A stretch of DNA of 32,000 nt from Halogeometricum borinquense DSM 11551 (GCF_000172995.2 NC_014729.1:750001-782000), one strand, 5' to 3'; positions 6,084-25,784 are shown, counted from the stretch's first letter. A program made the numbers and translations. Notes: generated by a model from the letters alone, not told the origin.

Positions 6084-7694
6084 ATGCGTACACTTGCGTT
6101 CGACGGACGAATGGGTGCTAGTGGTGACATGATTCTCGCGTCGCTTCTCGCCGCCGGTGCCGACCGGGATGCACTGGCCCCTGTCGAGAACGCTCTCGAT
6201 GTTCACTACGATGTCTCGACGGTGGTCAAAAACGGGATCTCCGCTCGTCGCGTTCGTGTCCGCTTGGATGATACTGCCGGCGGCGGCGAGGGAGCGAACG
6301 ACGGACACGACGCTGACGGGGGCCACGAGCACGCGCACGAACACGGAGATCATAGCCACGGTCACGAACACCATCACCACGCACACGACCACTCCCACGG
6401 TGAAGGCCACACGCACGACCACTCTCACGGCGCAGGCCACACGCACGACCACTCTCACGGCGCAGGCCACACGCACGACCACTCTCACGGCGCAGGCCAC
6501 ACGCACGACCACTCTCACGGCGCAGGCCACACGCACGACCACTCTCACGGCGCAGGCCACACGCACGACCACTCTCACGGCGCAGGCCACACGCACGACC
6601 ACTCTCACGGCGCAGGCCACACGCACGACCACTCTCACGGGGACCACACCGAACACCCCCACGACGATGATCATGCACACGAGACACCCGCTGAGGGACA
6701 CGGTCCGCACCGCGCGTACGCAGAAGTAGTCGAGATAGTCGAGTCGATGGGCTTGCCGAACGGCGTCGAACGGGACGCGAAAGCTATTTTCCGGATTCTC
6801 GGCGAGGCGGAAGCAGCGGTCCACGGCACCGAGTTGGATGAGACGCATTTCCACGAAGTCGGCGCAGACGACGCCATCGCGGACATCGTCGGCGCGTGTC
6901 TCCTCCTCGCTGACCTCGACGTCGAACGCGTCGTCACGTCGCCTCTTTCGACCGGCGGCGGCGAGCAGTCGATGGCGCACGGTACGTATCCAGTTCCGAC
7001 GCCCGCTGTCGTCGAAATCGCCCAGCGCGCCGACTGGTCGTTGAAAGGTGGTCCCGTCGAGGCGGAACTGTTGACGCCGACGGGCGCGGCAATTCTCGCG
7101 CACGTCGCCGAAGGCGTCGAGTCGCTCCCGACGCTCGAAATCGATGCCTCGGGGTACGGCGCGGGCGGATACGACTTTCCGGACCACCCGAACGTCCTGC
7201 GAACGCTCGTCGGCGACGGTGCGGGCCGTCTCATCCGCGACGAGATAACCGTCTTGGAGACGAACCTCGATGATGCCGCGCCGGAACTCCTCGGCGGTCT
7301 CCAATCGACGTTGAAAGACGTGGGCGCGCGCGACGTGACTATCCTTCCGGCGACGATGAAGAAGTCCCGACCCGGACATCTCGTCAAAGTCATCGTCAAA
7401 CCGGAGGACGCCGAACGCGTCGCGAACCGCCTCGCTGTCGAGACGGGAACGCTCGGCATCCGAGAACACGGTGCCGGACACCGATGGACCGCATCTAGAC
7501 GATTCGAGACAGCCGAACTCGAAATCGAGGACGAGAGACACGAGGTGGCGGTGAAAGTCGCGTCCGATGCCGAGGGAGCGGTGTACGATTACAGCGCCGA
7601 GTTCGATGAGGCTCAGGCCGTCGCCGACGAAACGGGCCTGCCAATCCGTGAGGTCATGCGACGCGCGGAGAACATCGTCGCAGGCGACGACTGA
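6084..7694 (+). CDS. larC: LarC-family nickel insertion protein (DUF111) with an expanded His-rich insert
   Basis: The N-terminus MRTLAFDGRMGASGDMILASLLAAG matches the LarC/DUF111 start motif. The remainder (HFHEVGADDAIADIVG, LSTGGG, TPTGAAIL, TMKKSRPGH) also fits the family. The His-rich tract lies at the position where LarC proteins carry one. Confidence 0.85.
   Translation: MRTLAFDGRMGASGDMILASLLAAGADRDALAPVENALDVHYDVSTVVKNGISARRVRVRLDDTAGGGEGANDGHDADGGHEHAHEHGDHSHGHEHHHHAHDHSHGEGHTHDHSHGAGHTHDHSHGAGHTHDHSHGAGHTHDHSHGAGHTHDHSHGAGHTHDHSHGAGHTHDHSHGAGHTHDHSHGDHTEHPHDDDHAHETPAEGHGPHRAYAEVVEIVESMGLPNGVERDAKAIFRILGEAEAAVHGTELDETHFHEVGADDAIADIVGACLLLADLDVERVVTSPLSTGGGEQSMAHGTYPVPTPAVVEIAQRADWSLKGGPVEAELLTPTGAAILAHVAEGVESLPTLEIDASGYGAGGYDFPDHPNVLRTLVGDGAGRLIRDEITVLETNLDDAAPELLGGLQSTLKDVGARDVTILPATMKKSRPGHLVKVIVKPEDAERVANRLAVETGTLGIREHGAGHRWTASRRFETAELEIEDERHEVAVKVASDAEGAVYDYSAEFDEAQAVADETGLPIREVMRRAENIVAGDD
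6391..6650 (+). repeat. 30-bp in-frame tandem repeat inside larC
   Basis: The unit actctcacggcgcaggccacacgcacgacc occurs 7 times without a single mismatch (6421-6630). It is flanked by one diverged copy (6391-6420) and one partial copy. It encodes (HDHSHGAGHT)n. Confidence 0.97.
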
Positions 7695-7733: not shown

Positions 7734-8507
7734 TCACTCCGTACCGTCGGTTTCGGTGTTTTCAGCGCCGTCGTTGTTCTCCGATTGGTGTTCGGCCAGT
7801 GCCTCCGAGACGGTGAGGTCGCCCGCGGCGACGCGGCGGGCGAGTCGTTCGTCGATGGTGCGGTTGTTCTCGGAGACGCGGCGGGAGTGGTCTTTGATTC
7901 GCTGAAGTTCGCCTTGGGTCGGTTCGATATCGCGTGAGTCAACAACCTCACCGTTCATCCGGGCGATGTTGACCGCGGCGAGGACATCGCCCATCCCGCG
8001 GGCGCCGGTTCCGAGATATGGCGTTGTTCCGGTCTCATCGACGAGTTCGACAGTCACGTCTTCCAGTTCGTTTACGATAGTCGAACCTTGGAGGCGTGCG
8101 CCGTCACCGATACGAACGATGGCGTCCGGACTATCTTCGACCTCCTGCCGGATGGTTTCTACCGTGTCGGCGAGCGGGACGTGAAACGCGGCGACGATGG
8201 TGTCACCCGAGAGTACGGCGATCCCCGGTCGAGTGCCGGGGTCTACGCCGATGACCGTTCGACCACCGCCGCCGCGGAGGATACTGATCGCTTCCTCGAC
8301 GGCGCGGCGGGTTTCGCCTGCTGACGCGACGACAGTTTCGACGCCCGACGGAATCTCTACCTCGTCGGTCCCAGAAACGACGACGACGTCCGCTTGGTCG
8401 GGTATCTCGGCTCCGGGTTTGACCGTGGTGAAGGCGACACCCCTGTCACGGAGGTCGCCCACGATTTCGTGGTAGAGTTCGAAGTCAGCAGTGGCGACGA
8501 CTATCAC
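7734..8507 (-). CDS. RNase-H-fold (YqgF/RuvX-like) putative nuclease, conserved archaeal protein
   Basis: Motifs VIGVDPGTRPGIAVL, VELVDETGTT and GMGDVLAAVNIA resemble the GxDxG, DERxTT and DxxAAxxI motifs of YqgF/RuvC-fold proteins. The ORF extends to 8675, but that part is basic and overlaps the radB 5' region. A GTG at 8507 starts VIVVATADF. Confidence 0.6.
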   Translation of the reverse strand: MIVVATADFELYHEIVGDLRDRGVAFTTVKPGAEIPDQADVVVVSGTDEVEIPSGVETVVASAGETRRAVEEAISILRGGGGRTVIGVDPGTRPGIAVLSGDTIVAAFHVPLADTVETIRQEVEDSPDAIVRIGDGARLQGSTIVNELEDVTVELVDETGTTPYLGTGARGMGDVLAAVNIARMNGEVVDSRDIEPTQGELQRIKDHSRRVSENNRTIDERLARRVAAGDLTVSEALAEHQSENNDGAENTETDGTE

Positions 8508-8598
8508 TCGTGGACGTTTGCGAGGCGAGCGGTAAAACGTGTCGCGCGAGACGGCCGGACCGGGGGGTTTTTTCGGCAGACACGACTCACCTCCTCTC

Positions 8599-9294
8599 GT
8601 GTCCGAGTCAGTTACTACCGGTTGCCGTTCGCTCGACGACCTCTTGGGGGGTGGGTTCGAGCGCGGCACCGTCACGCAGGTCTATGGACCTCCGGCGGCG
8701 GGGAAGACGAACGTCGCCCTCTCAGCGGCGGTTCGTGTCGCTGCTGCGGGCGGAACCGTCGTCTACATCGACACCGAGGGGCTCTCGGTGGACCGGTTCC
8801 AGCAACTCGCAGAACACGTCGCTGGACCGGAGCAGTCGATAGAGGACGTGACTTCTCGACTCATCGTCTCGGAGGCGCACGACTTCGAAGAACAGGAGGA
8901 AGCCGTCCGCGACACCACGGAGTTCGCCGAACAGGCCGACCTCGTAGTTCTCGACAGTGCAACCGGGTTCTACCGTCTCGAACGGACGATGGACAAAGAC
9001 GGCGGGGAGTCGCTTCGCCGGGTCGCACGGCAGGTGACGCATCTGCTTTCGCTCGCTCGCAAACACGACCTCGCGGTGGTCATCACGAATCAGGTGTTCT
9101 CCGACCCCGACAGCGACCAGATTCGTGCCCTCGGCGGTCACACGCTCGAACACTGGACGGGGGCAGTGCTCCGAATTGACCGGTTCCGCGGCGGCAACCG
9201 CCGCGCAACACTGGAGAAACACCGCGCAAAACCTGCGGGTGAGACGGCTACGTTCGAGATCACCGACGGCGGCATCTCCTCGACGCAACTGTAG
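8599..9294 (+). CDS. radB: DNA repair and recombination protein RadB
   Basis: SVTTGCRSLDDLLGGGFERGTVTQVYGPPAAGKTNVAL carries the Walker A, and LVVLDS is the Walker B. The length is short for a RecA-family protein and there is no N-terminal HhH domain. The start is ambiguous: GTG at 8599 (typical RadB N-terminus) or GTG at 8539. Confidence 0.88.
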   Translation: MSESVTTGCRSLDDLLGGGFERGTVTQVYGPPAAGKTNVALSAAVRVAAAGGTVVYIDTEGLSVDRFQQLAEHVAGPEQSIEDVTSRLIVSEAHDFEEQEEAVRDTTEFAEQADLVVLDSATGFYRLERTMDKDGGESLRRVARQVTHLLSLARKHDLAVVITNQVFSDPDSDQIRALGGHTLEHWTGAVLRIDRFRGGNRRATLEKHRAKPAGETATFEITDGGISSTQL

Positions 9295-9424: not shown

Positions 9425-10594
9425 TTACAGGTCGCCGAGTTTCCGCATGACCTGTCCTTGGTACTTCTCGTCGGCGTTGACGCCTTTCAGTTCGAGCACG
9501 TTGCGTTCGAGTTTGTCGAGCGCGACGTGGAAGGCATGTTCTGCGCCGTAGCCTTCACCGCTCCCGGCCACCTGTCCGTGACTGGTGCGGAGTCGGACCT
9601 GACTCTGGATAAGCGGCGTCCCGCGGAGTTTCTCTTTGTGTTCGTGGAATCGGACGTGCGCGTGGTGAACCTGCATCTGCTGGTATTTGTCCACCACCTT
9701 CGTGATGGAGTCAACGACGCTGTCCCGCGTGAGCGTCTCCAGCAGGCCGATGTTGGTTATCTGCACGTCCATACGCTCTTCTTCGGTGAACGTCAGTGCG
9801 CGAAGCACGTCCGTCTTCGTGAGGATGCCGAGCACTTCGGTGTCGCTGTCGGTCGGCGTGACAACGACGCCCTCGATATCGTTGTCGAACATCCGCGAGA
9901 CGACCGTATCGATCTTCTCGCCGGGCGTCGCCGTAATGACGGGCGAAGACATCAGGTCGTACACCGGTAGGTCGAGCATCCGGTCGAGGTCACCGCGGCG
10001 GTCGCCGCGGCCCTGTCTGTCAGCGTTCCGGACCGAGAACTCGATGATGTCGTGCGTGGTCAACACGCCGGTGAGTTTACCGTCCTCGTCGGTAACGGGA
10101 AGCCGGGAGATACCGTTCTCACGCAGGCGGTTGATCGCCTGCCCGACGTGGGACTTCTCACCGATGGTGACAACATCCTTGGTCAGAATGTCCTCGACGG
10201 AAATTGCGTCAAGGTTGTCCAACACCGCTTCGAGGATGTCGTTACCCGTGATGATACCGTAGAGTTTCTCGCCTTCGTAGGCGGGTGCGATTCGGGTGTC
10301 GCCTTCGACCAGCATTCGGGCGGCCTCACGAACGTCTTCGTGACGGTCGATCTTCGGGGCGGATTTCATCACCGCAGACGCCTTCGTGTCGTCTTCCATG
10401 CGAGAGCGAACGAGTTGCTTCTCGCCGATGACACCGGCGTACTCCCCGTCGTTAGTCACGATGACCCCTCGAGAGTTTTCGCGCTCGAAAATTGATCGGA
10501 CTTTTCCCAGCCGTTTGTCTGCATCAACCTCGACGAAATCGGGAGTGGCAATATCAGCAATATTCATAGTCCGAGTAACCTCCATCGTTAACAT
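9425..10594 (-). CDS. Four-CBS-domain protein fused to a C-terminal HPF/RaiA-like (S30AE) domain
   Basis: There are two CBS pairs (aa about 10-270). The C-terminal 100 aa (MDVQITNIGL...HAHVRFHEHK...QVRLRTSHGQVAGSGEGYGAEHAFHVALDKLERNVLELKG) follows the beta-alpha-beta-beta-beta-alpha pattern of ribosome hibernation factors. An alternative start is the ATG at 10567. Confidence 0.75.
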   Translation of the reverse strand: MLTMEVTRTMNIADIATPDFVEVDADKRLGKVRSIFERENSRGVIVTNDGEYAGVIGEKQLVRSRMEDDTKASAVMKSAPKIDRHEDVREAARMLVEGDTRIAPAYEGEKLYGIITGNDILEAVLDNLDAISVEDILTKDVVTIGEKSHVGQAINRLRENGISRLPVTDEDGKLTGVLTTHDIIEFSVRNADRQGRGDRRGDLDRMLDLPVYDLMSSPVITATPGEKIDTVVSRMFDNDIEGVVVTPTDSDTEVLGILTKTDVLRALTFTEEERMDVQITNIGLLETLTRDSVVDSITKVVDKYQQMQVHHAHVRFHEHKEKLRGTPLIQSQVRLRTSHGQVAGSGEGYGAEHAFHVALDKLERNVLELKGVNADEKYQGQVMRKLGDL

Positions 10595-16139: not shown

Positions 16140-16420
16140 TTCTGACTTTACTGCGGAGATAGGCCCCGTTATTTCGAGATAGGAACAGCTGCGGGCTCTC
16201 TTTTGTGTTGGTCGGAACACTATGACATCCTCCTCGCCGTTCACGGCGAGGTTTCCTCGCGCTGGGGTATCGTTTACCGACCCACGGAGGCAACTTGCGG
16301 GTTCGTATGCTCCTCGTTGGGACGGGGAGAGCGTGATGACTCCAACCATTCGTGGTTGTCCCACTTGAGGCATACAGGCCGTGCCATCGACCGTGTTACC
16401 GTCGTCTGCCGTTGACGAGA
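16140..16420 (-). ncRNA. Predicted TnpB guide RNA (omega/reRNA) scaffold region
   Basis: By analogy with characterised TnpB systems, the guide RNA overlaps the 3' end of tnpB and the IS right end. Downstream of the stop the minus strand has mutually exclusive hairpins GCGAGG-AAA-CCTCGC and CCTCGCCG-TGAA-CGGCGAGG. Boundaries are inferred, not seen. Confidence 0.3.
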
Positions 16421-17608
16421 CACAGAGTGTCTCGTTCGCCAATCAGAACTCAGAGAGTTCTGATGACGTCTCAAGAACGTCTCTGACGCCACGAGGTCAG
16501 CGTGCCCCTCGAAGCCACACGGACACGTCAGCGTATCTCTGTGGCGCGTCGTCTCCTCTGTCGAACCACAGTTGGGACACTCCTGACTCGTCCACGCCTC
16601 CGACCGAACCTCTACCGACATACCGTATTCCTTGGCGGTACACGCCACCCGGTTCACGAACGCCCTGAACGCCCAGAAATTGTGCGTTTTCGCGTTCGTC
16701 TCTACCGACCAGTGCGTTTCCAACACGTCAGTTAACGCCCCAACGTACACCGTCGAAACGCCTTCATCGTAGAGGCGTTCGATGAGGTCACGGGCGAGTG
16801 CGTCTTGGGCGTGGTCACGTCGCTTGGTACGTCGGTCGTACAGGCGTCGGATTCGGTGACTGCTGTATCGACCTTCCTCCAACAGTGATTGGAGTCGGGC
16901 GATTTCTCGTGTCGTCTCGCGGAACCTGTCGAACAGGTCACGTCCTTCGTACAATAGTTGTTGACCGGTTGTGGTTGTGCAGGCGACGAGGTTGTTCGCA
17001 CCAATATCCAGAGCGGCTTCTTCCGAAGCCAGTGGTTGTGCCAGTCGAGAATCATCGACGGTGACTGGCTGAAAGGCCCTGAACGATTGTGCTTGCTCGT
17101 CGTAGAACAACTCCAATCGACCCTGCTTCTCATACTCCGTCCAGTTCGGGTCGCCCCGAACTTCGAGCCGGAGGCGTTCGCGGTGTCCCAACCCGTACTC
17201 GTCTTTCAGGTCTTTGCCGACGAGGATTTCGAGCCGGGAGTATTCACCCCACTCGACCGAGTACGACGTGTTTCGGATGTACGTGCGGAGTTCTCGACCT
17301 TCGTCTGCGTTGCCCCAGTATCCGGGTTTTCCGTTGGCTTCGCCTTTCTTCCTAAGGCTGAAGAACGACTTCCACGCTTCGCGGTTCTTGCGCTCGATTT
17401 GCTGAACCGTGGACGCCCCGAGAACACCGCCGTAGCGACCACGATACTCGCTGATGTCCCACACGTCTCCGTCTGGGTCAGCATAGTGTTCGCGGCGCTC
17501 GTAGTTGATTTCGTTCCAGAGAGCGGCAGAAGCGTCCAACAGGCGTCGAAGCAACTCCTCGTCCTCGTCGGACAGAGGAACCACCTCGAACGTGTTGGCT
17601 CGCTTCAT
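16274..17608 (-). CDS. tnpB: TnpB (IS1341-type, RNA-guided nuclease family, OrfB)
   Basis: The 444-aa product has RuvC-I in [11 protein letters not shown], a zinc finger CPNCG...CPCG, and RuvC-III in [11 protein letters not shown]. The N-terminal [39 protein letters not shown] is typical OrfB_IS605. The RuvC-II glutamate is not obvious by eye ([11 protein letters not shown]). Confidence 0.9.
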
Positions 17609-20963: not shown

Positions 20964-23900
20964 CTACGACCGCCGCCACGCCAGTGTCACGACTACGAAC
21001 AGGCTCAGGATGGCCGCGAGCGGTCCAAATCCTGGAACGCCGGTTTCCGTTTCGGTCGGTGTCGCGGTTGGCGTCGCGGTCGGTGTCTGAGTTGCCGTCG
21101 GCGTCGGGCGCTCAGTCGGCGTCGGCTCGGTCACGCCAACGGTGCCTGCGGTTTGGTTCCCGACGCTGAGGTTGTACGTCCCGACTTCGTCGAACTGTAC
21201 GGTGAACCTCTCCGTCTCTGAGTCGCCAGCCCCGAGCGTCACGCGCCGCGTATCGGTCGTCGCATTGTCCACGGCGAGCGAGACGTATCCAGTCGCCGCT
21301 CGCGTCCCGTCGTTGGTCACTCCCGCTGAAACAGTGACTGTCTCTCCGGGTCGAATGCGCCGTTCACCGACGCTTGCGTTCGTCACCGCGACCCGGCCGC
21401 CGGACTCGCGGCCGACGGCGAACGTTGACAGTCCGGGCGTGTCGGCGTTGTAGACGTACGTCTCCTCTCGTTTCTCGACGAGGATTGCGTTCAATTCCGT
21501 CCACGTTCCGTCGTGATATCGGTAGAGAGCCACTTGATCCGGCGAAACGTTCCGCTCGTGCAGACGTTCCTCGTGTACGCCGAAGCGGAAGACCGCGTAG
21601 TCGATATCGCGGTCCGAGACGGAGTGGTCTACCTGCAAGTATCCGACCGTCTGCTCGTTGGGTGATGTCACGTTCGCGTCGATGGTAGCGTTCGGCGCGT
21701 CGTCGTGAACCGTAGCCTGTACCGAATACGTCTCGTTCTGTGACGCAATCGAGAGCGTGTCGAGGCTGACGTTCTTCGATTCGCTCGTTGTGTTCAGCGG
21801 AAGATCTACCAGTGACGACGGCTGTGCGGACTCCACGCGAACTGAAGATCCGTTTCGACCGGTCCGTTCGACGGAGACGTTCGCTCGCGGCGGTTCGGAG
21901 TCGTTGGCGTCGGTCTCGGATTCCGGGTCTGGTTCGATCACGACGATTTGTTCTTCGTCGCCACCGCCGCCTCCCCCACCGCCACCGCCGTTCGCGTCCG
22001 AACGTGATCCGTTCAGAGAGATCGTTGCCGATTGTCCGGACGCACCGTCGTTCCCGTTCGCGTCCGCGAGACGTGCCAGCGTCACCGTTACTGACCCATT
22101 CGATCCCACCGCGTGCGACGTCTCGTAGCTCGTCCCGCTCACCGAGAAGTCTGTCTCGTCGAGTGTCGCATTCGCCGACCCGGTCAGCGTGACGTTCACG
22201 TCGTTCAGCGTCTCCGAAGCGTCGAAGGCGATATCGACCGACGAGTCCGATCCCGCGGAGACGGAGAAATTCGAGACCGTCGGCGGGGTGTCGAGGGTGA
22301 GCGTTCCGGTCTGGGCTGACCGTTTGTTTCCAACGGTGTCCGTCGTCGTGACCGGGACCGACCGGTCGCCGTCGGCCGCAGTCGCGTCGAAGTCTACGGT
22401 GAGTGTCGCCGTGTAGGTCCCGTCGGAGTCGCCGTCAGCAATCGAGACCGCACTTCCGGAACCGAATGCACTCCCATCGACCGTCACCGACCCGATGCCT
22501 GCAGCGTCACTCACCGTCGCTGAGATATCTATCTGGTCGCCCGGCGCGACGACGCCGTCGCCGTCTGTCGCGTCAGTGAACGTCAGGCCGGTGACCGACG
22601 GCCCGGTCGTATCGAGCGTCAGCGACCCCGTCGTTCCGCTTCCGACCGTCCCCCGGTCGTCACTAGCTTGAATGGGTGCCGAGACGCTCCCGTCTGCGGA
22701 CGCGTTCGACTCGTCCACTGCGACCGTCGCGTTCCATGTGCCATCGTCATCACCGTCCGTCAACGTGACCGTTCCAGCTCCGATGGCCGAGAGGTCGGTC
22801 GTTACTGTCGCCACGCCGTTCGCGTCGGTCGCTGTCGCCTCCACAGTGACGTTCTCACCATCCGTGAGGACGCCGTCACCCGTCTCGTCCGTAAGCGTCG
22901 GACTCGATACGGTCGGACCAGTCGTGTCGAGCGTTAGCGATCCCGTCGTCCCGCTTCGGACGTTCCCCGCGCCGTCCGTCACATCGACGGCCACGCTGTA
23001 GTCGCCGTCGGGGTCCGCGTTCGCACCGTTTACGGTGACCGTCTTCGACCAATCGCCGCCGGTATCGGTGAGGGTGACGACGCCAGCACCGAACGCCGAG
23101 AGGTCGGCCGTCACCGACTGCACACCCGCAGTGCTATCCGTCGCTGTCGCGGACACGGTCACAGATTCGCCGTCAGCGACGATGCTGTCTCCGTCGGCGT
23201 CGTCTGTGACGCCCACTGAGGAGAGTGTTGGTTTCGCCGTGTCGAGGGTCAGCGTCTCGGTCGTAACGACGCTTGTCTGACCGGCCTCGTCGCTGACAGT
23301 AACGGACCCACCGTGCGAGCCGTCGGGATCCGCATTCGCGGCGTCAACGGAGACAGTCACATCCCACGTTCCGTCCGAGTCGCCGTCGGCCAAGGTGACG
23401 GTTCCGGCGCCGAACGCCGAGAGGTCGGCTTCGACGGTGCGAACCTCGCTTCCGGTTCCGTCGGGTGTGACGGAGACAGTGAGATCCTCGCCGCCCGCCA
23501 CGTAGCTATCAGCATCACTGTCGCTCAGTGAGAGCCCTGATGTTGATGGTGTGACAGTGTCGAGGGTGAGCGTTCCGACCGTCGTCTGATTTGTCTTCCC
23601 TTGACTGTCGGCGGCCTCGACAGAAACGGAGTGCTCTCCGTCCGCAACACCCGACGCGTCCACGACGAACGTACCGTTGTACACGTCCGAACTCCCGACT
23701 TGCGAGAGACTGACTGCACTGCCGCCGCCGAGTTCGGTTGCGTCCGCAGTGACAGTATCAACTGTCGTCGCGTCGGTCACGGTCAGTTCGACTGTCACCG
23801 TCTCTTCGTCCGCGACGACACCGTCACCGTCGGTGCCTGTGAGACTCCCGGCCGAAAGCGTCGGCGGGTTCACGTCCTGCGTCAACTCGTTCGTCGTCGC

Positions 23901-25784
23901 CGAGTTGGCGTTCCCGAGGTCGTCCGTCGCTTCGACGGTGAGACTGTAGTTGCCGTCGCCCGCGGCGTTGGTCCCGTTAACCGTGAACGACGTCTCGTAG
24001 GTGTCGCCGCCGACGTTCGAGAGCGTCTCGGTTCCGACGCCGAAATCTGATGCGTCCGTCGTCACTGCGGTGATTCCAGTCGTGTCCGTCACCGTCGCGG
24101 AGACAACGACTGTGTCGCCGTCGCGGACGACGCTCATGCCGCCGCTCCCGTTTCTGAGCGTCAGCGATGAGAGACTTGGACCGCTCGTATCAACGCTGAG
24201 CGTCCCTGTCTCTGTCGAGGCGGTGTTTCCCTCGTCGTCTGTCGCCGTCACCGAGGCGAGTTGGTCTCCCTCGGTCGGCGACTGACCGACCGCCGTCGTC
24301 AGGTTCCACGTGGACCCATCGGACGAGGTGAGTGAGACGGAACTCCCCAGATCGAACGCCGAGAGATCGGCCGTGACCGACTGCACACCGCTCGTGTCGT
24401 CGGACACTGTCGCTTCGACGGTTATCTCGTCTCCGTCGGTCACGTTCCCGTCGGCGTCTCCGTCAGTGAGTGAGAGAGGACTAATATCCGGCCCGGTCGT
24501 ATCCACAACGACTGTTTCGGATTCACTGCTTGCACCGTCTTTTCCGGTTCCGTCCGCGGCTTCATCGAGCGTGAACGTGTACGTCCCGTCGGTCGGCGCG
24601 TTGTACGTCGCCTCGTACGTGTACGGGGCCGACCCATCGGCCGTCGAGAACGCTGCCTCCGTAACTGTCGTCGAATCCGCTCCCGAGACGCTCACCGTGA
24701 TGTTCCCGAGCGTTTCGTCGCTGTCGAACGAGAGGCCGACCGACTGCCCCGAGGAGTTATCGACCGCAAACGATGTGATATTAGGATCCGTGTTCAGTGT
24801 CAGCGTCTCGACGGTCGTCTGATTCACGTTTCCGGCCGCGTCGCGTACGCGGACAGTTACCGGGTAGTCACCGTCGGTCGTCCCTCCTTCCGAGACGGTT
24901 ATCGTGGCGTTGTACACGCTTGATTCCGTTTCGTTCGTCAGCGATTCCGACGTACCTGCACCGAAATCCGAGAGGTCGGCCGTCACTGACTCTATCGCCG
25001 TCGTCGCGTCCGCCACATCTACCTCAACAGTCACTGTCTCGCCAGCATCGACGGTCCCGTCGTCGCCTGCTTCGGAGAGCGTCGTTGACGAGTACGTGGG
25101 CGCATTCGTGTCGAGACGAAGTGACGGCGAGTCGGTCCGATTGGTGTTACTCTGATTGTCGGCGGCGACGATGGTAACGTTCGTCTCCCCGTCAGCGGGA
25201 ACGCTTCCGCCGACGGTGAACGTCGCCGCGTAGGTGTCACCGTTCGTGAGAGAGAGCGAAACGGTTCCAGCACCGAAGTCAGACGCGTCGGCTTCGACAG
25301 ACTGCACGCTCGCTGTCGCGTCTACGACGTCGGCCCTGACGCGGACGGTGTCGTCCGAGGCGACGATTCCGTCTCCGTCCGAATCGTCCAGCAACTGCAC
25401 GTTCGTCACCGACGGTTCGGTGGTGTCTACGTACGCGCTATCGTTCAGTGAACTCTCTTTGACGAACTCGCCGGTGTAGTAGCCGTCACGACTCACGTTC
25501 GTCGTCGTCTCGTAGTGATACCCGCCGGAGATATTGGTTTCAGTGAACGTGTCGGCACCCAACACCTGATCGGAATCACCGTTTCGGTAGAGTAAAATAT
25601 CGAAGTCAGACAGTTGCTGTGTCGAGTCGAACGAGACGGTCAAGTTCTGCCCCTCAGGGTTCGAGATAGTGAAGTTTGATTGCTCCCCGCTGGCCGCCTC
25701 TGCGACTCCCGGACCGACTGCCGCCGCGGCCGCCAAAATCATGACTGCAACTGTGACGAGAGTAACGGAGACCCCTCGCGTCAC
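20964..25784 (-). CDS. Giant (1606 aa) repeat-built cell-surface glycoprotein/adhesin with PGF-pre-PGF, CARDB-like and PGF-CTERM domains
   Basis: It has a signal peptide (MTRGVSVTLVTVAVMILAAAAAVGPGVAEA). It contains nine modules of about 105 aa starting DTxxP and three modules of a second type. A Gly9 run follows. The PGF-pre-PGF-like block is VGYLQVDH...YRYHDGTWTEL...TPGLSTFAVG. The C-terminus has a TPT-rich linker and GVPGFGPLAAILSLFVVVTLAWRRS. NxS/T sequons are numerous. Confidence 0.9.
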   Translation of the reverse strand: MTRGVSVTLVTVAVMILAAAAAVGPGVAEAASGEQSNFTISNPEGQNLTVSFDSTQQLSDFDILLYRNGDSDQVLGADTFTETNISGGYHYETTTNVSRDGYYTGEFVKESSLNDSAYVDTTEPSVTNVQLLDDSDGDGIVASDDTVRVRADVVDATASVQSVEADASDFGAGTVSLSLTNGDTYAATFTVGGSVPADGETNVTIVAADNQSNTNRTDSPSLRLDTNAPTYSSTTLSEAGDDGTVDAGETVTVEVDVADATTAIESVTADLSDFGAGTSESLTNETESSVYNATITVSEGGTTDGDYPVTVRVRDAAGNVNQTTVETLTLNTDPNITSFAVDNSSGQSVGLSFDSDETLGNITVSVSGADSTTVTEAAFSTADGSAPYTYEATYNAPTDGTYTFTLDEAADGTGKDGASSESETVVVDTTGPDISPLSLTDGDADGNVTDGDEITVEATVSDDTSGVQSVTADLSAFDLGSSVSLTSSDGSTWNLTTAVGQSPTEGDQLASVTATDDEGNTASTETGTLSVDTSGPSLSSLTLRNGSGGMSVVRDGDTVVVSATVTDTTGITAVTTDASDFGVGTETLSNVGGDTYETSFTVNGTNAAGDGNYSLTVEATDDLGNANSATTNELTQDVNPPTLSAGSLTGTDGDGVVADEETVTVELTVTDATTVDTVTADATELGGGSAVSLSQVGSSDVYNGTFVVDASGVADGEHSVSVEAADSQGKTNQTTVGTLTLDTVTPSTSGLSLSDSDADSYVAGGEDLTVSVTPDGTGSEVRTVEADLSAFGAGTVTLADGDSDGTWDVTVSVDAANADPDGSHGGSVTVSDEAGQTSVVTTETLTLDTAKPTLSSVGVTDDADGDSIVADGESVTVSATATDSTAGVQSVTADLSAFGAGVVTLTDTGGDWSKTVTVNGANADPDGDYSVAVDVTDGAGNVRSGTTGSLTLDTTGPTVSSPTLTDETGDGVLTDGENVTVEATATDANGVATVTTDLSAIGAGTVTLTDGDDDGTWNATVAVDESNASADGSVSAPIQASDDRGTVGSGTTGSLTLDTTGPSVTGLTFTDATDGDGVVAPGDQIDISATVSDAAGIGSVTVDGSAFGSGSAVSIADGDSDGTYTATLTVDFDATAADGDRSVPVTTTDTVGNKRSAQTGTLTLDTPPTVSNFSVSAGSDSSVDIAFDASETLNDVNVTLTGSANATLDETDFSVSGTSYETSHAVGSNGSVTVTLARLADANGNDGASGQSATISLNGSRSDANGGGGGGGGGGDEEQIVVIEPDPESETDANDSEPPRANVSVERTGRNGSSVRVESAQPSSLVDLPLNTTSESKNVSLDTLSIASQNETYSVQATVHDDAPNATIDANVTSPNEQTVGYLQVDHSVSDRDIDYAVFRFGVHEERLHERNVSPDQVALYRYHDGTWTELNAILVEKREETYVYNADTPGLSTFAVGRESGGRVAVTNASVGERRIRPGETVTVSAGVTNDGTRAATGYVSLAVDNATTDTRRVTLGAGDSETERFTVQFDEVGTYNLSVGNQTAGTVGVTEPTPTERPTPTATQTPTATPTATPTETETGVPGFGPLAAILSLFVVVTLAWRRS
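22301..25427 (-). repeat. Array of diverged modules of about 315 bp (Ig-like repeats) within the giant surface protein gene
   Basis: The consensus DT(T/S)GP(S/T)xSxxxLTDxxGDGxVxxGExVTVxAxVxDxxxGVxSVTADLSAFGAGxVTL...GxxxTGxLTL recurs nine times. Coordinates were derived from amino-acid positions and are approximate. Confidence 0.8.

Follow-up and report, generated by a model that had tools for sequence, protein, structure and literature searches.

Does a single haloarchaeal gene join a CBS-domain sensor to a ribosome hibernation domain, and is its product a hibernation factor of the kind known as AHA in Haloferax volcanii and as HibA in Thermococcales? The question is raised by an open reading frame (ORF) in a 32,000-nucleotide stretch of the Halogeometricum borinquense DSM 11551 genome (NC_014729.1:750001-782000; hereafter the window, with positions counted from its first nucleotide), for which a preliminary description had proposed two CBS pairs followed by a C-terminal domain resembling the bacterial hibernation factors HPF and RaiA. 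Database names point in different directions: the DSM 11551 protein is called 'transcriptional regulator' at NCBI, and several orthologues carry the automated JGI annotation 'CBS domain-containing protein/ribosome-associated translation inhibitor RaiA'.

The ORF list places a 389-aa ORF at positions 9425..10594 of the minus strand, exactly where the preliminary description had located it; the length of 389 aa, by contrast, has to be shortened to 380 aa when the starts of homologues are considered. The translated ORF matches a 380-aa H. borinquense DSM 11551 protein (WP_006053639/ADQ66414) with 100% identity, and all of the at least 120 homologues listed, which are ~380 aa long and have MNIADI or MDITDI at their N-terminus, start at the position of the third in-frame ATG. 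Since the identical protein and all listed homologues begin there, the coding sequence most likely starts at window position 10567, corresponding to Met10 of the 389-aa ORF, and spans positions 9425..10567 of the minus strand (380 aa beginning with MNIADI, followed by a stop codon at 9425-9427), a delimitation with which a gapless alignment to AHA over 380/380 residues agrees. Two further in-frame ATGs lie upstream, at 10594 and 10585, and probably do not serve as starts.

In the protein, four CBS motifs precede a C-terminal domain of ~115 aa. The four CBS stretches recognized by Pfam (E 1.1e-40) amount to two Bateman pairs, in accordance with the two CBS pairs initially described. Together they form an N-terminal CBS tetrad of two Bateman modules (residues 1-260; positions 9788..10567, minus strand), and a Foldseek search with the full-length model matched it to SriA/B, MJ1225, AMPK-gamma and Dri with E-values of 1e-21 to 1e-15. 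The G-h-h-T-x-x-D motif of CBS domains contacts ribose and phosphate. Among 33 haloarchaeal orthologues this motif is invariant in both CBS3 (G167, T170, T171 and D173) and CBS4 (G247, T250, K251, T252 and D253), and it is found in HibA too, as seen in the alignment to PDB entry 9SR9. The invariance of these ribose-binding motifs in CBS3 and CBS4 argues for selection on ligand binding.

Fold of the C-terminal domain

The C-terminal domain occupies positions 9428..9775 of the minus strand. A C-terminal module had been correctly placed in this part of the gene, but its proposed limits of 9479-9772 proved too narrow: the last helix reaches the C-terminus of the protein and the domain extends accordingly to 9428-9775. 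The full-length AlphaFold2 model is of moderate confidence (pLDDT 76.6) and is uninformative with regard to the relative orientation of the domains. When it was used as a Foldseek query, all 50 matches listed were CBS tetrads, a result which is uninformative on the HPF domain; the search was therefore based on a model of the domain alone. The latter was predicted with higher scores (pLDDT 88.2, pTM 0.76) and consists, in domain numbering, of a strand (8-11), a helix (21-33), three strands (40-54, 57-68 and 71-79) and a long final helix (82-119), with the same order of elements as in the full-length model.

When the domain model was compared with the PDB, the best 30 matches were all HPF, RaiA/YfiA, pY, RafH or MPY proteins, i.e. 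bacterial or chloroplast hibernation factors, with a best E-value of 1.3e-5, target-normalised TM-scores mostly of 0.65-0.78 and rmsd values mostly of 2.5-3.5 Å. The best match was the chloroplast PSRP1/pY (5mmj_y, E 1.3e-5); others included YfiA bound to the 70S ribosome (4v8i, as well as 4y4o, with a target-normalised TM-score of 0.78 and an rmsd of 2.7 Å), E. coli HPF (6h4n_x, E 1.4e-4, target-normalised TM-score 0.75), mycobacterial RafH and MPY, and the HPFs of Vibrio, Listeria, Acinetobacter and Coxiella. The first non-HPF fold, a dsRBD, appeared only at rank 31. We consider the HPF fold predicted by this model to be a solid assignment, and the HPF/RaiA fold that had been proposed for the domain was thus recovered by structure searches and, as detailed below, by profile searches.

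At the sequence level the relationship is more remote. The C-terminal domain matches the PF02482 family (Ribosomal_S30AE) with 19.1 bits (E 0.0022 for the domain scanned alone), below the gathering score of 23.7, and the NCBIfam model TIGR00741 (yfiA) with 15.9 bits (E 0.014), missing the cut-off of 40.9; taken by themselves, these scores are weak. When the last 120 residues were searched against a collection of 1.84 billion representative proteins, 75 clusters were retrieved at E <= 0.001: most of these are proteins of 375-417 aa in which the domain is C-terminal, and the rest are shorter, being fragments or stand-alone versions. The domain alignment comprised 32 diverse copies, 21-73% identical to the copy in the window. 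PF02482 was matched singly by 17 of 32 diverse family members at E <= 0.01, the best of them at 1.4e-5. Two motifs of the domain, HKEKLRGTPL and GEGYGA, are conserved in both the haloarchaeal and the family alignments. [quoted passage not shown]

The comparison of the domain profile with all PDB sequences yielded two strong matches, 9L96 (1e-36) and chain H of 9SR9 (2.7e-31), both of which are archaeal CBS proteins. Among the next 11 matches, nine were bacterial HPF, RaiA/YfiA or S30 chains, with E-values of 0.05-0.93. In these profile alignments the last-helix motif A-x-x-x-A-x-D-K-L-E-R-q pairs with NAIDLATNKLERQIRKHK of Bacillus subtilis and SIDLIVDKLERQIRKHK of Listeria, reproducing the DKLERQ-type helix motif to which the preliminary description had pointed. 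A phmmer search of the PDB with the single sequence of the domain retrieved the two archaeal CBS-HPF chains only, and bacterial HPF was not found. Because the profile E-values of 0.05-0.93 are individually non-significant, the sequence evidence for homology to bacterial HPF, which comes through the enrichment of such chains and not through any single significant match, is suggestive.

Orthology with AHA and HibA

Over its entire length (380/380 residues) the H. borinquense protein aligns with H. volcanii AHA (HVO_2384, D4GWN2) without gaps; 72% of the positions are identical and 88% are positives. Searching PDB sequences with the whole protein gave two hits spanning the full length, C-terminal domain included: a 406-aa 'CBS domain-containing protein' (9L96, E 1.2e-69) and the 392-aa chain H of 9SR9, deposited as 'Dehydrogenase' (E 1e-50), in which residues 11-386 of the ORF align with residues 5-388. 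The latter is HibA of Pyrococcus abyssi. We also considered whether the 9L96/9L98/9L9C/9L9V series might be the entries belonging to the paper on the ARC factors; this attribution was rejected, the ARC codes being 9XHK, 9XP4, 9XP5 and 21NN.

The genomic neighbourhood is conserved as well. Counting outward from the factor, the gene is followed by a convergent radB (positions 8539..9294, plus strand; NCBIfam RadB NF006861, 420 bits, cut-off 278), a conserved gene that matches no family, larC (Pfam Ni_insertion) and a gene for a CDC48-type AAA ATPase. The window and Haloferax share this five-gene order (CDC48, LarC, unknown, RadB and AHA) and the relative orientations of the genes. Of 30 haloarchaeal loci examined, 28 have radB downstream of the factor in convergent orientation, and one of the 30, a full-length Halobacteriales locus that is more distant, lacks the pairing. 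The radB gene is a synteny marker and not part of the factor: being convergent, the two genes are not co-transcribed, so that an operon link between radB and AHA is ruled out. On account of the gapless 72% identity and the conserved neighbourhood, we conclude, with a probability of roughly 0.93, that the gene is the H. borinquense orthologue of the ribosome hibernation factor AHA/HibA. Every trait of AHA and HibA that can be looked for in a sequence (CBS tetrad, HPF fold, full-length homology or orthology, and the CBS3 loop discussed below) was found, and the domain architecture, fold, orthology and conserved functional elements are thus properties of the H. borinquense protein itself. The labels 'transcriptional regulator' and 'CBS domain-containing protein' should accordingly become 'ribosome hibernation factor AHA/HibA'.

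The two namesakes have been characterized experimentally. AHA was found, independently of HibA, on 70S ribosomes in H. volcanii lysates, named by Souza et al. (bioRxiv 2026, PMC12934967) and resolved on the ribosome by cryo-EM at 2.4-2.8 Å (PMC12934967), and HibA came to light when ribosomes from stressed P. abyssi were mapped by cryo-EM (Madru et al., Nat Commun 2026, PMC13324472), where it was described as a four-CBS module (residues 1-269) followed by an HPF/RaiA-like domain (270-392). The HPF domain of both lies in the mRNA/tRNA channel of the 30S subunit, the site of bacterial HPF, contacting h18, h23, h24, h28, h30, h31, h34, h44, uS7, uS11 and uS12, and the CBS tetrad sits on the 50S subunit, where a loop of CBS3 ('loop 3' of AHA; 'PTC loop' of HibA, residues 190-207) enters the peptidyl-transferase centre near the universally conserved A2602 (PMC12934967; PMC13324472). 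The CBS module of HibA takes three positions, at the peptidyl-transferase centre, uL5 and the L1 stalk (PMC13324472), and such 50S conformers have been described for HibA only. [quoted passage not shown] By analogy with these orthologues, the H. borinquense protein would be expected to bind ribosomes and AMP and to play a comparable physiological role.

AHA is the closer of the two relatives. It shares with the H. borinquense protein the length of 380 aa, the four-CBS and HPF architecture, the CBS3 loop, the CBS3/CBS4 motifs, K311 and K313, the five-gene neighbourhood and the affiliation to the family Haloferacaceae. The two nevertheless belong to different genera, differ in 28% of their residues and have different upstream neighbours (an S8 subtilase here, PilB/T2SSE in Haloferax), and the H. 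borinquense protein is known from its sequence. HibA (P. abyssi, PDB 9SR9-9SRF and 9T7H; T. barophilus TERMP_00697; PMC13324472) displays full-length homology, the combination of CBS and HPF/RaiA domains and the same placement of the PTC loop, but is distant in sequence (E 2.5e-8 for the C-terminal domain alone) and comes from hyperthermophilic rather than halophilic hosts.

The reading of a CBS sensor and an HPF fold as an archaeal hibernation factor is supported by the orthology to AHA and by the full-length homology to HibA. The inference was correct, and the function was already known from AHA and HibA, since the family was described experimentally in 2025-2026; the accompanying premise that the silencing of archaeal ribosomes is poorly understood is outdated, at least five factor families having been reported in 2024-2026. 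The value of the present result for the window is therefore confirmatory: a reading of the sequence alone recovered a function the discovery of which took cryo-EM. In this family an HPF module of bacterial type and a nucleotide sensor resembling AMPK-gamma are combined in one protein, the most widespread ribosome hibernation factor of archaea. One survey found it in ~47% of archaeal genomes (PMC13324472), and another counted 3,160 AHA homologues in 2,723 of 6,968 archaeal species (PMC12934967).

Proposed binding mode and regulation

By homology to the cryo-EM structures, the CBS tetrad of the H. borinquense protein would dock on the 50S subunit with its long CBS3 loop pushed into the peptidyl-transferase centre. 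With the HPF part placed on the 30S subunit, one polypeptide would bridge both subunits. Such bridging is expected to block translation and to keep idle 70S ribosomes from falling apart or being degraded during stationary phase or energy stress. The extended CBS3 loop (residues 181-200, NADRQGRGDRRGDLDRMLDL; positions 9968..10027, minus strand) aligns without gaps to loop 3 of AHA and is aligned with the region of the PTC loop of HibA, and 11 of its 20 residues are invariant among the 33 haloarchaeal orthologues. [quoted passage not shown] Its pLDDT is low in the free full-length model, as expected if the loop becomes ordered on the ribosome.

The CBS3/CBS4 pair is predicted to bind adenine nucleotides, with a preference for AMP, and nucleotide binding probably ties occupancy of the ribosome to the energy state of the cell, either directly, via ribosome affinity, or via the sequestration of the factor by a partner. 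In ribosome-bound AHA, two AMP molecules occupy the CBS3/CBS4 interface, at places that match the regulatory sites 3 and 4 of AMPK-gamma (PMC12934967); HibA likewise binds AMP at CBS3/CBS4, with one site reported. Isothermal titration of the HibA CBS module gave Kd values of 12 µM for AMP, 65 µM for ADP and 113 µM for ATP, i.e. an affinity for AMP ~10 times that for ATP, and GTP and GMP were not bound by the isolated module (PMC13324472). Gating of ribosome binding by nucleotides is nonetheless presented as a hypothesis by both groups, those working on AHA and on HibA, and we treat it as such for the family as a whole.

The AMP density in AHA, the AMP preference of HibA and the invariant ribose-binding motifs of CBS3 and CBS4, through which ligand binding appears to be selected, all weigh against a different account of the regulatory step, as does the reported release of related ARC CBS factors by ATP. 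According to this account, which we regard as possible but doubtful, the binding mode is the same, the CBS tetrad is mainly structural, serving for 50S binding and as a plug of the peptidyl-transferase centre, and the switch is something other than a direct effect of nucleotides: acetylation of K311/K313, sequestration by the acetyltransferase Pat2 or by DNA-recombination/replication proteins, or simple competition, at times of slowed translation, with tRNA and mRNA. Several observations speak in its favour. Saturating AMP or ATP produced no clear shift in the ribosome binding or the conformer distribution of HibA in vitro, and its authors suggest a sequestering partner (PMC13324472); the abundance of AHA is independent of growth phase, being equal in exponential and stationary cells (PMC12934967); and K311 and K313 of HVO_2384 carry acetyl groups, while the protein was recovered together with an inactive variant of Pat2, a GNAT acetyltransferase (PMC12607858).

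The conservation of these two lysines, which H. borinquense shares, points the same way. Lys311-Glu312-Lys313 (positions 9629..9637, minus strand; the numbering is identical to that of AHA) form the tip of the β2-β3 hairpin in the domain model, within the stretch HAHVRFHEHK quoted in the preliminary description, and K311 and K313 are invariant in the 33 haloarchaeal orthologues. Acetylation of these residues and the co-purification with Pat2, together with the tail-to-tail pairing with radB and the HibA pull-downs, which in Thermococcales contain recombination and replication proteins, underlie a more specific proposal, namely that in Haloferacaceae the true on/off switch lies not in the AMP/ATP balance but in acetylation, or in the sequestration of the factor by an acetyltransferase or by proteins of DNA metabolism. 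We find this unlikely; were it true, hibernation would be coupled to carbon status or to the state of DNA repair. How adenine nucleotides, acetylation or partners might switch the factor, whose nucleotide-linked regulation we continue to favour, is a question for the family at large and not specific to this locus.

Other identities and related systems

The NCBI name, together with a weak match of 55 bits to the NCBIfam model of HhpR, could be taken to indicate a CBS-domain transcriptional regulator like HhpR, with a C-terminal domain that binds DNA or a regulatory partner. The match, however, falls far below the HhpR cut-off of 520 bits and reflects generic CBS sequence only; the Pfam scan did not detect a DNA-binding domain, the C-terminal domain has an HPF fold according to Foldseek, and the orthologue has been seen on the ribosome at 2.4-2.8 Å (PMC12934967). 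Consequently, a regulator of the HhpR type is effectively refuted, and we assign it a very small probability. A subunit of an IMP-dehydrogenase-like enzyme or of some other 'dehydrogenase', as might be supposed from the name under which chain H of 9SR9 was deposited, from the designation of one Haloferax member as IMP dehydrogenase and from NCBIfam IMPDH matches of ~50 bits, is still less probable and is refuted by the domain content, given that these matches are restricted to the CBS insert of IMPDH (residues 108-186) and lie far below cut-offs of 481-549 bits, and that the Pfam and NCBIfam scans found the catalytic TIM-barrel domain to be absent.

With bacterial HPF/RaiA and the chloroplast PSRP1/pY, the protein has a similar last-helix motif in common, and its AHA/HibA orthologues share their site on the 30S subunit. 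The identity to bacterial HPF/RaiA, however, is only 13-25%, the archaeal β2-β3 hairpin and C-terminal helix are longer and have been reported as archaeal-specific insertions (PMC13324472), and the domain is fused behind a CBS tetrad in a 380-aa protein, resembling neither a stand-alone HPF (~95-115 aa) nor a long HPF with its dimerisation domain. Unlike for bacterial HPF, no 100S dimers have been reported for a factor of the AHA/HibA type. Since the curated thresholds of PF02482 and TIGR00741 are missed and the architecture differs, the H. borinquense protein is homologous to bacterial HPF/RaiA at the level of the superfamily and does not belong to the curated families.

Among archaeal proteins, Dri of Pyrobaculum calidifontis (9E6Q) and SriA-D/ARC-A,P of Methanosarcina and Methanolobus are likewise hibernation factors built on CBS tetrads. 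Their tetrads can be superimposed on that of the H. borinquense protein by Foldseek (9znf_4, E 3e-21; 9e6q_3, i.e. Dri, E 5e-16), and Dri, too, reaches into the peptidyl-transferase centre with an equivalent loop (PMC12934967). Both groups nonetheless differ in being devoid of an HPF domain: Dri possesses two CBS tetrads and is rotated by ~180 degrees in its orientation on the 50S subunit, and the Sri/ARC factors are separate proteins which act in tandem. Membership in Sri/ARC or Dri was rejected, as the H. borinquense protein has an HPF domain and only four CBS motifs. The γ subunit of AMPK, finally, displays the same CBS tetrad fold, a resemblance already published (Foldseek E ~1e-17; TM-score 0.51 query-normalised and 0.63 target-normalised) at an identity of 15-18%; AMPK-γ acts within a kinase heterotrimer, which has no counterpart here, and the output of AHA/HibA-type factors is a steric block of the ribosome rather than the activation of a kinase.

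Conserved lysines and membership of the hibernation-factor family

Two lysines of the HPF domain of the hibernation factor, Lys311 and Lys313 (9629-9637, minus strand), are invariant in the 33 haloarchaeal orthologues aligned, and in the predicted structure they lie at the tip of the β2-β3 hairpin. The two acetylated lysines reported for the Haloferax volcanii orthologue HVO_2384 (PMC12607858) match these positions exactly. The pair could form a site at which the binding of rRNA is regulated.

The best PDB match of the hibernation factor is a 406-aa CBS-HPF protein deposited as 9L96, 9L98, 9L9C and 9L9V (E 1.2e-69), which is acidic and haloarchaeal-looking; no paper citing this series was found in the literature examined. 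Four cluster representatives retrieved with the C-terminal domain (P0147, P0151, P0158 and P0182) are about 400-417 aa long and, together with 9L96, suggest that the family includes a second, longer class of paralogues. The annotation of the family is behind the literature of 2025-2026: its members are variously named in databases 'transcriptional regulator', 'CBS domain-containing protein', 'Dehydrogenase' (PDB 9SR9 chain H) or 'Inosine 5'-monophosphate dehydrogenase', and RaiA is mentioned only in some JGI entries.

radB and the adjoining conserved ORF

The radB gene (8539-9294, plus strand) stands tail-to-tail with the hibernation-factor gene, their stop codons being separated by about 130 bp, and this pairing is kept in 28 of the 30 haloarchaeal loci compared. 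The two genes are convergent and therefore do not form an operon. In Thermococcales, according to PMC13324472, pull-downs recovered the homologue HibA together with proteins of recombination and of replication initiation. The pairing with radB could reflect simple synteny inertia or hint at a functional link.

The conserved ORF that runs divergently from radB (7734-8675, minus strand) spans at most 313 aa, and searches of Pfam and NCBIfam returned no match for it. tblastn located it at the same position in 24/30 loci, and its Haloferax homologue is 248 aa long. As listed, this ORF and that of radB overlap at their 5' ends, and the true starts of both are therefore probably internal to the listed ORFs.

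A histidine-rich array in LarC and other features of the window

The larC gene (6084-7694, plus strand) encodes a nickel-insertion protein (Pfam Ni_insertion, E 1.9e-122) and contains a 30-bp tandem repeat (6377-6640; 8.8 copies, 97% matches), translated as a histidine-rich array of the decapeptide HDHSHGAGHT. Since LarC is 536 aa long in the window, whereas its Haloferax orthologue has only 493 aa, the array appears to be a metal-binding tract that has expanded recently.

A TnpB-type gene (16274-17608, minus strand), with an OrfB_IS605 match (E 2.4e-26) and a Cas12f1-like TNB domain, represents a mobile element of the IS200/IS605 family, either a remnant or an active copy. Farther along, a very long ORF of 1606 aa (20964-25784, minus strand) carries DUF4625 and bacterial Ig-like Big_13 domains, and probably encodes a large protein of the surface or adhesin-like type; short tandem repeats of 12/24 bp lie within this ORF at 21053-21107.
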